Positions 38,803 through 46,861 of a stretch of DNA of 64,000 bases are shown in pieces. This stretch comes from a virus, in IMG/VR virus record IMGVR_UViG_3300030103_004816; one strand, 5' to 3'. The notes under the pieces are model-generated. The model made no database searches. It saw only the letters and a program-made list of their open reading frames with translations, and was not told where the DNA came from. Position numbers and translations under genes: made by a program. How positions within the stretch are numbered: position 1 is the first letter of the stretch; every line of letters starts with the position of its first letter.

Positions 38803-39609
38803 CTATAAGTCAACTACTTTAGGGTAATCTTTACAGTTATTTAAGTATTGTTGAGGGTCTAACCATAAACCTTCCTGGTTAACAAGCCCTTTTTTGTAGT
38901 TCTTTTCAATTATACTATATAGTTTAGTATATGCAGCACTATCTTTAGGTGCAAAGCGTTCTGAACCGGGAGATGCTTGTACTGCTATCTTCTTTAATCT
39001 AGTATCAACAGCTAGTCCTTCTGATACCATCTGCAATGGGAGAGTAAAGTCTGAACCATAAACCCATGCAAGAGTCATATCATAACCGTAAGTTTGGTTA
39101 AAAGCATCGTTACTTATGATAAAACTATTAAGACATTGATGTTTTATACTAGGATCTTCTTCTAAACTATCGTACTTAGTACGTCCCCCACGGAAAAACT
39201 GAAAAGTCATCGGTATTTTATGCATAGGATCGTAATATTTAAGGAATTTACCCCCAACTAGCATGTCTTTACACTTTTCATCGTCTAAATCAATGACTAA
39301 ATCCATATCCATAAGGGCATTCCAGCGAAATCCCGTTTTTTTCATTAAAATATTGCGACAGACCTCATTTCCCCACCCAAAATCCTGTTCTACACGATAT
39401 CCCTTCCAATTTTTAGGTAAATTATCCGAATTTAACGGTTGTTCTTGTGAACCATCGTCGATTACCGTGAAATTGAAGTATTCTTCGTACGGTTTATAGT
39501 GTTCTACAACTTCCATGAACAAATCATAGTTGTTATAGTACGTATAGTTAATGTTAAGCCACTTTTGGGTCATAAAAAAATTGACAAGTACGTCTTTTCT
39601 TGTTTTCAA
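38803..39609 (-). CDS. GT-A fold (GT2-like) glycosyltransferase
   Basis: YTYYN..IDDGS..WGNEVCRN..DMD..GYD..YG.D. Confidence 0.75.
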   Translation of the reverse strand: MKTRKDVLVNFFMTQKWLNINYTYYNNYDLFMEVVEHYKPYEEYFNFTVIDDGSQEQPLNSDNLPKNWKGYRVEQDFGWGNEVCRNILMKKTGFRWNALMDMDLVIDLDDEKCKDMLVGGKFLKYYDPMHKIPMTFQFFRGGRTKYDSLEEDPSIKHQCLNSFIISNDAFNQTYGYDMTLAWVYGSDFTLPLQMVSEGLAVDTRLKKIAVQASPGSERFAPKDSAAYTKLYSIIEKNYKKGLVNQEGLWLDPQQYLNNCKDYPKVVDL

Positions 39610-40081
39610 ACACAGGAAGCGTGAAATGTAAGCAAGGTGCTATTACTAATACTCCCATACCATAAACGGGGCGCGTTATTATACTATCGCCGTAGGCGCC
39701 TCCGCCGTCCGAATCTGGATTTTCAATACAACAGTTATGCCCACCCCAATGCTCTTCCCATTCCTTATTAAGAAATACGGTAAGCCCGGCAATATGATTA
39801 ATATCGCTATGAGGTGGTATACATTGTCCATAACCTATTTCATGAAAACCTTTACGAATAATACTATCGTTAGGTATTTCATCTATATTATCAAATATAA
39901 AGTTATGTATATTACTATCGTCAAACTGATCATTCCAAGTATACTGCTTTAGTTCCCAGTGATCATGATCATTAGGGAAGTTAAAGTTCATATTAAAGTC
40001 ATTAAAGCATTCGTTATGATCAACGTCTACTACTATGTCTTTAAGTATATAACAATTGGAATAACGTTTGACTATTTCCAC
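39554..40081 (-). CDS. 2OG-Fe(II) oxygenase
   Basis: HSD..TVFLNKEW...WGG..H..PV..R...QFF. Confidence 0.8.
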   Translation of the reverse strand: MEIVKRYSNCYILKDIVVDVDHNECFNDFNMNFNFPNDHDHWELKQYTWNDQFDDSNIHNFIFDNIDEIPNDSIIRKGFHEIGYGQCIPPHSDINHIAGLTVFLNKEWEEHWGGHNCCIENPDSDGGGAYGDSIITRPVYGMGVLVIAPCLHFTLPVFENKKRRTCQFFYDPKVA

Positions 40082-42999: not shown

Positions 43000-43137
43000 A
43001 TGGAACTATTAGCTATTGGATTTTTAGGTTATGTTTGGTTGAAGACGGTTGCGTTCTTTAATAACTTGTTTGGGTTTGATAAACGCAGACCTTATACTTA
43101 TAAGTACCGAACTTCTAGAAACGAGTGGAAGATTTAG
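43000..43137 (+). CDS. Small peptide (45 aa)
   Basis: TATAAT and GAGGT upstream; MELLAIGFLGYVWLKTVAFFNNLFGFDKRRPYTYKYRTSRNEWKI. Confidence 0.55.
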   Translation: MELLAIGFLGYVWLKTVAFFNNLFGFDKRRPYTYKYRTSRNEWKI

Positions 43138-43186
43138 GGGAAGGGGACTCTGTGCATACTGCCTACCACTCCAGGCAGAGAGTAGA

Positions 43187-43217
43187 GGCGCTACGTCGAC
43201 GGTAGCGCCTTTTTTTT
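43187..43217 (+). terminator. Intrinsic terminator
   Basis: GGCGCTAC-loop-GTAGCGCC followed by a T-run. Confidence 0.85.
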
Positions 43218-43281
43218 GTCTAATTTCCAAAAGCTGCAATATTATTATCTTTTTTAATAAAAATCAACTACTTTAAGAAAC

Positions 43282-43926
43282 AAAAAAAAGCAGACCTTGC
43301 GATCTGCTCTTCCCATCATTTCACTAATAAGGAGGTAATATGATGTTTAAACTAAGTGGCAGGATACTTTTCACCCCTGCCATATTTCACTCTTAAGCTA
43401 TTAAGAGTCGGGATCGGGGTCCGCGCGAAGGTAGGGGTAGTCCAGTTATCGTACGTTCTGGGGTCACCTACTAAGCTACGCTTATATTTTGCCCTCCCGT
43501 TTTAAGGATTCTGAAAGGAACGCTAATTCGGATTCAGATCTTAAAAAACTCAAGGTGGGGCCAACAACCTGACTCAATTGGAATGTAATTGTACGGCCAG
43601 CACGATTGACTTTTTATATCGCGGCTGCATAAGGTGTATCATTAAGATCGCCTCTGCCTGACTCTACCGCTGCTTCCCATACATTTAAGTCGGTTTGACA
43701 CGGTTCAGTGTTCCAATTACAATCCTCACAGATTGCTGCTTAGCTGGATGAAATCTCTACGTTCACAAATTGGTTGATTAAGCCAATCCATTTACTACGA
43801 GGTCCCAGTCGTGGAGATCACCTTTAAGCACTTCCACCGCTATCTTAATTCAATCAAGGTATTTCAACTTTGATCTAGCTAAGTAAGCTCTTCAGCGCGC
43901 GACGTTCATATAGCCCCTGCTAAGTT
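43282..43926 (-). ncRNA. Large (~645 nt) structured non-coding RNA, family unassigned
   Basis: TTGCCA-18-TATAAT promoter (43962-43933); terminator GCAGATC-GCAA-GGTCTGC-T8 (43307-43282); no ORF >=60 aa; raised GC; many local and long-range helices. Confidence 0.75.
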
Positions 43927-44020
43927 AAAACTATTATACGCGCTTTTTAATACAAATGGCAACTACTTTAATGCCCCACAGTCCCTTTTTATTCGGAATA
44001 AGACTAATTCTTATTTAGAA

Positions 44021-44436
44021 AAAAAGTTGCACTTTCCTCAAAAATAATATAATATTGCAGCTTTTTATATAAAATTGAAATAATATTAGAATAAAGTTAT
44101 AATAGAAATATAATTAAAAAGGAGTAAATTATGTTATATTTAAAAATCATTTCAAATCTTATTATCTTATCTATTCTAGATCTTCACACTCATTTCATTA
44201 AACAACAAACTATTCTATTATCTAATTATACAAATCACCCTCTTCTATTTTCTAATAACAATATAGAAGAAGATTACATAATAGGGTTTCAAATTTACTT
44301 AAACATATTATCTAAATTTAAACTATTATAATATTTTAAAAAAAGTTAAAAAAGTAGTTGCATTTTATTTTAAAATATTATAATATTGCAACTTTTTATA
44401 TAAATTTGAAATAATATTAGAATAAAGTTATAATAT
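44021..44436 (+). repeat. Imperfect ~85-bp direct repeat (44021-44105 and ~44352-44436), each copy carrying two tandem promoters
   Basis: AGTTGCA..TAATATTGCA.CTTTTTATATAAA.TTGAAATAATATTAGAATAAAGTTATAATA present twice. Confidence 0.85.
44131..44331 (+). CDS. Hypothetical 66-aa protein, G-depleted coding strand
   Basis: TTGAAA-17-TATAAT promoter, AAGGAG RBS; 8 G in 201 nt. Confidence 0.6.
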   Translation: MLYLKIISNLIILSILDLHTHFIKQQTILLSNYTNHPLLFSNNNIEEDYIIGFQIYLNILSKFKLL

Positions 44437-44457
44437 GGTTTTAATAAGGAGAAAGAT

Positions 44458-44682
44458 ATGAAAATTGTAATTAGTGTTAGTAATGAAAAAGATATGTTAG
44501 GTAGTGTTGAAGAAAATAGTTTGAGAGAAATTGTTTTAAGTGATGATGTTATTAATGAATTTAAAATGAAATTTGAATGTGTTGGTTTTGAAAATAGTTT
44601 AGAAGAATTTATTAGTAATGATATTAAAGATTTATTAAGAATGGAAATTGAGGATGGTAAGTATAATTTATTTAATTATTGA
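44458..44682 (+). CDS. Acidic 74-aa protein, cytosine-free gene
   Basis: TTGAAA-17-TATAAT promoter, TAAGGAG RBS; no C; no P/A/T/Q/H residues. Confidence 0.75.
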   Translation: MKIVISVSNEKDMLGSVEENSLREIVLSDDVINEFKMKFECVGFENSLEEFISNDIKDLLRMEIEDGKYNLFNY

Positions 44683-44734
44683 AATAATAATAAAATAGAG
44701 TTATAATGTTTATATAATTTAAAAGGAGAAAATT

Positions 44735-45079
44735 ATGATAGTATTTGATAAAAGTGGATTTGTAAATTATGTTAGAAATAATGATGAGTTGTATATTGAT
44801 AATGTAAGTGTTGGTGGTGAAAATGATAATTTTGATAATGATATGGAAATTGTTAATAGTAGTTGGGATGGAAATGGAGTGTATTGTATTAAGTATGGTA
44901 GTAGGGGTGAAGTTGATTTTGAAAGAGTTAATTTTAGTGATGAATTAAATGAGTGGGATGAAAATTTAGATAGGGGAGATGAATTTAGATTAATGAGAAA
45001 TGATATTGGTAATAGTTATGTTGATTTAAGTTTTGGTGAAGAAGATATTAGATGTTATTTTATAATTGTGGAGGGGTGA
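44735..45079 (+). CDS. Acidic 114-aa protein, cytosine-free gene
   Basis: TTGAAA-17-TATAAT promoter, AAGGAG RBS; no C; no P/A/T/Q/H residues. Confidence 0.78.
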   Translation: MIVFDKSGFVNYVRNNDELYIDNVSVGGENDNFDNDMEIVNSSWDGNGVYCIKYGSRGEVDFERVNFSDELNEWDENLDRGDEFRLMRNDIGNSYVDLSFGEEDIRCYFIIVEG

Positions 45080-45080
45080 T

Positions 45081-45230
45081 ATGTTTGATTATGTTTTATT
45101 AAGATATAAATTAGGTGAATGTATAGATGTATTGTTTGATGATGATTGTAATATAGATGAAGATAAAAAAGATGAATTAAATAATGAAATACAAAATATT
45201 ATTGATAAATTGGGAGGGGAAATATATTAA
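45081..45230 (+). CDS. Acidic 49-aa protein with a single C
   Basis: GGAGG RBS; MFDYVLLRYKLGECIDVLFDDDCNIDEDKKDELNNEIQNIIDKLGGEIY. Confidence 0.65.
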   Translation: MFDYVLLRYKLGECIDVLFDDDCNIDEDKKDELNNEIQNIIDKLGGEIY

Positions 45231-45561
45231 TATATTTCTTGCACTTTACTTAAAAATAATATAATATTGGGGGAATTTTGTGGTGGGAAAAATAAATGAA
45301 AAAGTAGTTGATTTTTTTGTTGTTTGAATATAATATTGCGAAGTTAAGAATGATTCTTATTTAGATAATTTTATTATATTTTTTTTGAATTTTATTTGAA
45401 TTTTATTCTCCCCCCCAATTTGGTTGAGCGCTCGCTGTCTCCCGGGTGACTGGAAACTTTCGACTCCTGGGAACCGGAGAGTTTCTCTCTGAGGTTCGCT
45501 GACTAAACCCCCGCGGGTTGCAATATTATACTATTTTCGACAAAAGTGCAACTTGAGACAC

Positions 45562-45770
45562 AAAAAAAAGTCTCCTAGAAACGGGAGACTATTGCCCCGT
45601 GAGCATGCAGTGAGAGAGTCTCCTAGCTCATATCATAGGACCAAACCTAATTCGAGAGCGCCAGATGCTCGGGCAATAGTCTCCTCAGAAGTCTCCGCAG
45701 AGTCTCCTAGAAAGTCTCCCGAAAGTACTCTGAGCAGTTTAGCTAGGAGACTTTATAGGAGACTCTCCTA
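45562..45770 (-). ncRNA. ~210-nt small RNA with GGAGAC/GTCTCC repeats
   Basis: TTGCAT-17-TATAAT promoter (45805-45777); terminator AGTCTCC-N8-GGAGACT followed by a T-run; 9 GGAGAC/GTCTCC copies inside. Confidence 0.65.
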
Positions 45771-45807
45771 TACTCTATTATAGCATATTTTCAACCAATA
45801 TGCAACT

Positions 45808-46068
45808 CTAGAGTGTAGTTAGGTCATGCCCATCGACAACGATCTTATCAACGAAGTAATGGTTGCCAAGATGATCCTTAGTAACCGATCCATCCTCATC
45901 GATATCAACATTACAACCCATACGCTCGGCAATAGAGTCAAAGGCCATCTCATTAGCGGCAACACTGCCATTAATAAGAAGCTGACACTCTTTGCCATTA
46001 AGAGGCTCTATGTGTGGTATCGTCGTTGCGATATGCTCTAGTTCTATATAGTGCTTATATTTTTTCAT
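45808..46068 (-). CDS. Hypothetical protein (likely start MKKYKH)
   Basis: TTGCCT..TATAAT promoter just upstream. Confidence 0.55.
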   Translation of the reverse strand: MKKYKHYIELEHIATTIPHIEPLNGKECQLLINGSVAANEMAFDSIAERMGCNVDIDEDGSVTKDHLGNHYFVDKIVVDGHDLTTL

Positions 46069-46297: not shown

Positions 46298-46861
46298 TTA
46301 CTCCACGGGATCCACAAAGAATTGTAGTGATCTCCGTACTTTATCACGTTCCCATACCGGTGTACAACCATGAAGTCTAGGTGCGTATAATACTATCGTT
46401 CTATTGTATGTCGGTATGTTTATATCGATACCATCATTATCATTATATACATAGTTCCATGCACCCCAGTCCTTATGCCAATATTGATTCATAAAGAGAG
46501 TTATACCTATATAATGACCTCTATCACTATGAGGTGCAATCCCTCCTAGCTTATCACTATGATGTCTAATTTCATGACCACCGTATATTACCTTATATTT
46601 CTCAGGAAACTCTTGATCTTTATGTTTAATCATATCTATAATACGATCACCTATTTCAATGATACTATCTGTTGGTATATACTGATCTATATAGAAGTGA
46701 CTATGCTTATCAGGCCAATCGGTAGTAGTTTTATGGTTAGATTTATGAAACATACTATCAACATCGTACGTCTCTATATCATCTATAGTATTATCTATTA
46801 TCAGACACTTGCCACAATTCGGTATAGTTACAATGTCTTTGATGTCCTTCTTCTGTTTCAT
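46298..46861 (-). CDS. 2OG-Fe(II) oxygenase (start uncertain)
   Basis: HSD..TLFMN..W...WG..HGCTPV..R.SLQFF; paralog of 39554-40081. Confidence 0.8.
   Translation of the reverse strand: MKQKKDIKDIVTIPNCGKCLIIDNTIDDIETYDVDSMFHKSNHKTTTDWPDKHSHFYIDQYIPTDSIIEIGDRIIDMIKHKDQEFPEKYKVIYGGHEIRHHSDKLGGIAPHSDRGHYIGITLFMNQYWHKDWGAWNYVYNDNDGIDINIPTYNRTIVLYAPRLHGCTPVWERDKVRRSLQFFVDPVE

Follow-up and report, generated by a model that had tools for sequence, protein, structure and literature searches.

The question raised by this locus is whether a gene-free, minus-strand unit between positions 43962 and 43283 of an uncultured phage genome (IMG/VR record IMGVR_UViG_3300030103_004816) encodes a large structured RNA and, if so, of what kind. 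The whole 64,000-nt stretch of DNA that was analysed is henceforth referred to as the window. To our knowledge, very few large structured RNAs exist outside ribosomes, RNase P, tmRNA and introns. The phage-borne RNAs ROOL and GOLLD were recently shown to build RNA-only cages. A sequence-only reading of the window had taken the unit for an ornate non-coding RNA that stands alone and has a promoter and a terminator of its own. Our analyses agree: both signals are present and conserved, and covariation is strong. We are highly confident that the RNA gene is real and represents a new family. The unit combines conserved transcription signals with no conserved reading frame and a two-part fold that carries compensatory changes. 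In fuller terms, we describe it as a stand-alone gene for a structured non-coding RNA of about 580–720 nt (~644 nt here) from an uncatalogued family.

The promoter, TTGCCA-18-TATAAT (43933–43962, minus strand), matches 11 of 12 consensus positions, is the best in the region and is of an early, sigma-70-like type. Comparison of the homologues showed that the −35 and −10 hexamers are kept at a constant distance in every version while the spacer differs. We placed the transcript start at the onset of invariant sequence, ~7 nt past the −10 hexamer, and the predicted transcript of ~644 nt accordingly spans 43283–43926 on the minus strand, with both ends set from the sequence. It finishes at an intrinsic terminator with a GCAA loop, 14 pairs and a U8 tract (43283–43314, minus strand). 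The terminator stem is kept, with AGAUC/GGUCU replaced by AGCUC/GAGCU in one homologue (L042), a compensatory change. No ORF of ≥50 aa occurs within 43962–43283, and the versions do not share the strand, frame or position of their longest ORFs. Insertions and deletions of 1 and 2 nt fall inside the most conserved part of the RNA, and because they break every frame there is no conserved tag or reading frame. GC content is 0.41–0.47 in the unit vs 0.14–0.30 on the flanks, and the folding energy of the unit is below that of 20 out of 20 shuffles (MFE z-score −2.86). The promoter, the GCAA-tetraloop terminator, the lack of a long ORF and the raised GC content had all been noted in the sequence-only reading, and each was borne out. 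Directly after the RNA terminator, a second promoter of the same family (43274–43237, minus strand) starts another short unit (43100–43274). This short unit contains a hairpin at 43212–43184 that reads as a terminator on the plus strand.

We recovered six further versions of the RNA by exact-word scans and a neighbour-protein search and compared them with the window. L-numbers denote loci on metagenome or virome contigs. The versions are L048, L042 (to whose type the fragment L049 also belongs), L044, L001 (its contig is also that of L010 and L051), L041 and L093. Together with the window they give seven sequences from about five independent lineages, and all the homologues lie on virome or metagenome contigs. 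L048 is 99% identical to the window over 6.2 kb and, by that identity, is the same phage population; L041 is nearly identical to L001, and L093 is divergent. The family is surely larger than these seven sequences. A blastn search with the window RNA, its 7-kb surroundings and the L093 RNA found no match among 50,697 records of cultured phages, and in 185,579 bacterial and archaeal genomes three conserved words either were absent or matched only by chance. The exact-word scan of IMG/VR used six words, and the only true homologues among the matches were the L001 contig and L093. One of the words, the 16-mer ATCTTAATGATACACC, matched at least 114 IMG/VR contigs, most of them within one conserved protein gene unrelated to the RNA, and was set aside. 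The contigs that share it (most of L057–L170) carry a protein-coding block with striking conservation at the DNA level. A covariance model of subdomain B (R1, see below) matched all seven sequences with 209–246 bits and detected no further or second copies in the window and the collected loci (199 sources, 1.65 Mb). The syntenic loci of more distant relatives (L002–L008) have no large gene-free gap and the RNA is absent, so we regard it as an accessory gene of a phage subgroup. Full-text literature searches found no published description of the RNA.

The conservation of the gene is uneven. The flanking genes of L042 and L044 are 70–77% identical to the window at the DNA level, whereas the first ~380 nt of the RNA are 95.5% (L042) and 93.3% (L044) identical. 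For the last ~200 nt, the values are 70% (L042) and 66% (L044). Across the homologues, the identity of the 5′ core to the window is 98, 96, 93, 86 and 65%; conservation drops sharply right after an invariant ACC at 43556–43554, and the variable 3′ domain retains 59–70%. In L093, subdomain A is 57–59% and subdomain B 72–78% identical to the other versions, and the 3′ domain is 90% identical to that of L001. The RNA gene of L093 (5789–6378 of its contig) is thus a mosaic, part of which also matches L044. These identities imply that parts of the gene have been exchanged between versions, and the mosaic pattern indicates recombination inside the RNA gene.

We assessed the fold using a seven-sequence alignment (A4), an RNAalifold consensus, 500 shuffled alignments and controls in which pairing partners were slid by 1–3 columns. 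The consensus comprises 146 pairs in 25 helices, and 95.4% of the cells form standard pairs. Changes on both sides of a pair were found in 51 pairs compared with 24.1 ± 2.9 in the shuffles, none of which (0 out of 500) reached 51, and only 5–10 pairs were changed on both sides in the slid controls. Covariation among collected homologues had been named beforehand as a check on the RNA, and the outcome favours it. We note that the both-sided changes in the core count few independent events because most of them come from the single divergent version, L093. P1 and helices 12–13 are identical in all seven sequences, and their pairing is a prediction of the fold.

The near-invariant 5′ core domain (~361 nt, 43557–43917, minus strand) is closed by P1, a 7-bp helix between GGGGCUA (43917–43911) and UGGCCCC (43563–43557) that is followed by the invariant ACC. 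The sequence-only reading had closed a large domain with a long-range helix, 43887–43876 with 43478–43467. This helix failed: its 5′ strand covaries with a local partner instead (alignment columns 43–52 with 84–93), L044 and L093 have other sequence in place of the 3′ partner, and P1 is the predicted closure. Within the core, subdomain A (43748–43909, minus strand) is closed by AUGAA/UUCAU (43909–43905 with 43752–43748), which changes to AAGGA/UCCUU in L093 and is a better fit than the outer portion of alifold helix 8. The covariation of this subdomain rests on alifold helices 2–4, 6 and 9, and the tips of its arms carry the loops UGAAAU, CUUAAAG (CUUAAUG in most homologues) and CUUAAUCAA. A second helix proposed from the single sequence, 43819–43810 with 43761–43752, was not retained: its 5′ strand changes from GAUCUCCAC to GAUACCAC, the opposite strand is unchanged and pairs are lost in five versions. 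When folded on its own, L093 adopts the same layout.

Subdomains A and B are joined by an invariant linker, CCAGCUAAG (43739–43747, minus strand), which is complementary to CUUAGC in the 5′ leader and to a UAGC loop at ~43400; all these partners are invariant. Subdomain B (43562–43738, minus strand) comprises P2, P3 and inner hairpins, including GAUCUUAAUGAUAC. Its helices 10, 11, 14, 15 and 16 have 5, 6, 1, 1 and 3 pairs, respectively, with both-sided changes. P2 pairs 43738–43729 with 43571–43562 (minus strand; 5 pairs changed on both sides) and P3 pairs 43725–43714 with 43591–43580 (minus strand; UGUAAUUG/CAAUUACA, replaced by CUAGAAUG/CAUUCUAG in L093). Two alternative registers had been suggested for 43721–43711 with 43591–43575. 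The first, UGUAAUUG/CAAUUACA, holds with 5 compensatory pairs in L093, and the second is lost in that version. An alternative hairpin, CAAUCU-GUGA-GGAUUG, pairs 43735–43730 with 43725–43720 (A4 columns 198–213) and cannot coexist with P2 or the base of P3. Three changes preserve it in L093 (GGUUCC-UUGA-GGGACU), and it may represent an intermediate in folding or a switch.

The variable 3′ domain (~200 nt, 43356–43556, minus strand) contains lineage-specific insertions and alifold helices 18–25, of which 19, 21, 23 and 25 all covary. The hairpins that had been read by eye in this part of the RNA fared better than the long-range helices. The one at ~43500–43547 has 5 covarying pairs. The hairpin with the invariant UAGC loop (43389–43408, minus strand; helix 25) has both-sided changes in 7 out of 8 pairs. 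The last family-wide hairpin (43356–43383, minus strand, loop GGUGAAAAG; read earlier as 43357–43382) has a fully replaced stem in L001 and L093 and a retained loop, GGUNAAAAG; in L001, L041 and L093 it is the terminator itself. The ACC that follows P1 can pair with the invariant GGU of its loop (helix 17). The hairpin at 43314–43345 (minus strand) also holds and displays AUAUUACCUCCUUAU, which is like the 3′ end of 16S rRNA. It is an addition present in the window, L048, L042 and L044 only; the other three versions, L001, L041 and L093, terminate one hairpin earlier. Because it is missing in three of the seven members, this hairpin cannot provide the core function of the family.

We compared the RNA with known families using the 4227 families of Rfam 15, a set that includes ROOL, GOLLD, OLE, HEARO, raiA, tmRNA, RNase P and introns. 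Over the whole window nothing reached the gathering score, and relaxing the cut-off to E ≤ 10 brought up no match on the RNA body in either the window or L093. A search at E ≤ 10 on 1.4 kb gave nothing relevant, only weak, terminator-driven matches. ROOL (RF03087) and GOLLD (RF01998) likewise had no covariance-model match at the gathering score or at E ≤ 10 on the RNA body. ARAGORN found no tRNA or tmRNA at its normal settings or at an 80% score threshold, and at 60% it gave only scattered and mutually inconsistent calls. RNase P RNA and group I and II introns were rejected, having no Rfam match, and an intron is further contradicted by conserved sequence that begins ~7 nt after the −10 hexamer and by a unit that ends at a terminator. 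The sequence-only reading had named the Rfam comparison as a check, had found no hallmarks of tmRNA, RNase P or introns and had suggested a possible new class; the negative Rfam and ARAGORN results are in line with all of this, also for ROOL and GOLLD.

The RNA is longer than 500 nt, non-coding, phage-borne and rich in covarying helices, which places it among the large ornate phage RNAs as a kind, not as a homologous family. It shares with ROOL and GOLLD a 580–720 nt size class, carriage by phages and a many-helix, multi-domain fold, and a self-complementary loop that, from its sequence, suggests assembly of copies. GOLLD has one conserved and one variable half (PMC12286853), as does the present RNA, in which the conserved half is 5′. 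However, there is no sequence or structure match to ROOL or GOLLD, and no tRNA genes adjoin the present RNA. The hosts also differ, ROOL and GOLLD being found in Lactobacillales or rumen prophages and the present RNA in ocean T4-like phages. OLE (RF01071) resembles it in a palindrome-to-palindrome switch in a hairpin loop (PMC12286853), but OLE is encoded in the chromosomes of extremophilic Bacillota and has protein partners, and the present RNA has no match to it.

The self-complementary loop lies in the 3′ domain, in a hairpin (43442–43461, minus strand) with a 12-nt loop and the palindrome CGUACG at 43455–43450. The stem covaries (helix 23), with CAG/CUG changed to GAG/CUC in L001. The loop reads AA-CGUACG-AUAA in three versions and AA-CUAUAG-AUAA in four, and 43455–43450 is the sole alignment position with a 6-nt palindrome in all seven sequences. 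The loop is predicted to be ~0.9 unpaired in all of them, and the adjacent positions 3 and 4 of the palindrome cannot pair within one chain. Kretsch et al. described internal tetranucleotides that switch between palindromes as support for the symmetric kissing loops OLE L9.3 and GOLLD L21a, which were seen by cryo-EM (PMC12286853). Although the pattern is the same, the switch here is a single event with a roughly estimated chance probability of 0.02–0.2, so it is suggestive and no proof. Both CGUACG and CUAUAG are also palindromic as DNA. Three further loops repeat YUUAAWG around a self-complementary UUAA (CUUAAUG twice and CUUAAUC). L093 keeps these loops as UUUAAAG, AUUAAUC and CUUAAUG, and one loop there is an 8-nt palindrome, GAUUAAUC.

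The window belongs to a T4-like myophage whose genes include ones for the baseplate, the tail and nucleotide metabolism. Even the closest cultured phages, those of Caulobacter, Sinorhizobium and Pelagibacter, are distant relatives, with ≤37% amino acid identity (baseplate protein). The promoter motif AGTTG-N18-22-TANAAT occurs 18 times in the window compared with 2.6 expected, most of the copies lying at 41.4–45.8 kb. The RNA promoter belongs to this 18-member AGTTG...TATAAT family, and copies of the module lie on both sides of the RNA gene, which is bracketed by two of them inverted relative to each other: a left arm at 43229–43286 and a right arm at 44008–44065 (arms of 58 nt with 72% complementarity, separated by 721 nt). 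A conserved 66-codon gene, for which we found five relatives, is oriented divergently from the RNA gene in the window, L042, L044 and L048. In L001 and L093, the RNA gene lies ~1 kb upstream of the 66-codon gene on the same strand and with other neighbours, and its orientation relative to that gene is inverted with respect to the window. The neighbouring proteins have no RNA-related domains, and no partner gene travels with the RNA.

Shuffling of promoter-early stem-loop (PeSL) cassettes has been described for T4-type phages (PMC2839356, PMC4122927), and the inverted promoter modules together with the varying orientation and neighbours fit such a process. Repeated promoter and stem-loop modules of the early type flank the RNA gene, and its placement, orientation and neighbours vary between related phages, as for a PeSL-type mobile cassette. 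The cargo differs: PeSL cassettes are described as carriers of small protein genes, whereas here the cargo is a large RNA gene. The surrounding region has several further peculiarities. GC skew is exactly 1.0 over ~800 nt at 44393–45191, where two small genes and their promoters are devoid of C on the plus strand. A GC-rich (0.45–0.49), gene-free patch at 45400–45810, between two promoters of the family, has GGAGAC/GTCTCC repeats together with a 21-nt inverted repeat (45699–45766). Small proteins encoded at 39554–40081 and 46298–46861, on either side of the cassette region, have weak matches to 2OG-Fe(II) oxygenases below the Pfam cut-off.

The best explanation that we can offer is that the RNA gene is a movable cassette, running from promoter to terminator, in a small group of uncultured T4-like phages from the ocean. 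Host RNA polymerase would make the RNA early in infection, and the RNA would act as a folded particle and not by coding or as a leader. Two or more copies would join via the self-complementary 6-nt loop of the 3′ domain in a symmetric kissing loop, as in OLE, GOLLD and ROOL, and the invariant 5′ core would be a working surface that binds a conserved host component. In the sub-lineage of the window, the appended hairpin like the 16S 3′ end may point to the translation machinery or to Shine-Dalgarno regions as one target. Taken as a whole (a movable gene and an early-made, folded RNA whose copies are joined by a kissing loop), we hold this explanation to be slightly favoured by the evidence.

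The rival explanations differ in the part of the RNA that they take to be functional. The appended hairpin could make the RNA a translation-directed regulator, whose ACCUCCUUA loop would pair with Shine-Dalgarno regions of host or phage mRNAs or mimic the 16S 3′ end, with the body serving stability only. The loop is identical in the four out of seven versions that have the hairpin while nearby sequence varies, and the phage's own genes use strong AGGAG sites. However, the hairpin is absent from L001, L041 and L093, and a search of the window for extended targets found no enrichment (3 matches vs 2.15 expected). The plus-strand complement of the loop is also a perfect ribosome-binding site with ATGATG that heads short ORFs, so the conservation of the loop could belong to either strand. 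Since this regulator would also leave the near-invariant 361-nt core unexplained, we consider it distinctly unlikely. On the plus strand, the perfect TAAGGAGGTAATATGATG start region (43328–43345) heads an 18-codon ORF antisense to the 3′ end of the RNA; the start region is kept in L042 and L044, with peptides that differ in frame and length. Another explanation makes the RNA a decoy or sponge for a host RNA-binding protein, with the three YUUAAWG loops (CUUAAUG twice, CUUAAUC) as multiple binding sites. The recurrence of the motif in three loops and its retention in L093 would suit such a role, but the UUAA core is self-complementary and the loops may kiss each other instead. No partner gene accompanies the RNA, we know of no protein linked to the YUUAAWG motif, and a sponge seems to us as improbable as the regulator.

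The ends of the core invite a comparison with tRNA and tmRNA, in that the 5′ and 3′ strands are predicted to form a 7-bp, acceptor-type stem followed by ACC and enclose ~350 nt. On this view, a core of ~364 nt would be released by an RNase P cut before G43917 and by trimming of the 3′ end back to ACC, with subsequent completion to CCA. P1 and the ACC are invariant in all seven sequences, with the sharp fall in conservation directly after them; GGGGCUA is as at the start of tRNA-Ala, and the length of the core resembles that of tmRNA. Against this, ARAGORN was negative at the normal and 80% settings and Rfam had no tmRNA match at E ≤ 10. There is no T-arm, the 3′ strand of P1 abutting a strand of P2 and not a hairpin, and pair 3:70 is G-C in place of the G3·U70 of tmRNA. 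No reading frame that could serve as a tag survives the 1- and 2-nt indels, and the ACC can pair instead with the GGU of the last hairpin loop. Both the tRNA- or tmRNA-like identity and the processing scheme therefore strike us as quite improbable. RNA primers of replication are known at T4 origins and as ColE1 RNA II, and one of several “orphan” early promoters could make a replication-priming transcript here. The promoter cluster and the very AT-rich DNA that adjoin the gene would accord with an origin, but this promoter is not an orphan, since its product is a folded RNA with a strong terminator at its end. What is under selection is the pairing of the RNA and not an unwinding element, L001 and L093 have the gene elsewhere and in the other orientation, and an origin primer is accordingly very improbable. 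The smallest probability, close to negligible, goes to the absence of any functional RNA, i.e., the remnant of a decayed gene, spacer DNA or a leader acting in cis on a neighbouring gene. The conservation of the unit, far above that of its coding flanks, and its compensatory changes already contradict this reading, and the unit ends at a terminator of its own, after which a new promoter follows.

We return to the folded particle whose copies join through the palindromic loop. That copies join in this way and present the near-invariant core to a conserved host component is, taken together, a tentative proposal, to which we give a little less than an even chance. A more specific version would describe a symmetric assembly of RNA only, made early, comprising two or more copies of an RNA whose family is unrelated to ROOL, GOLLD or OLE, with a core that ends like a tRNA acceptor stem and with a 16S 3′-end mimic added in some lineages. 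It would be a self-assembling device aimed at host translation, which we regard as unlikely yet worth stating. An unrelated family in the size class of ROOL and GOLLD, carried by abundant ocean phages, would be a new subject for cryo-EM, and the features of interest are the near-invariant core, the swappable domains, the self-pairing loop signature and the early promoter. Such an RNA family would test whether RNA self-assembly is a general strategy of phages.
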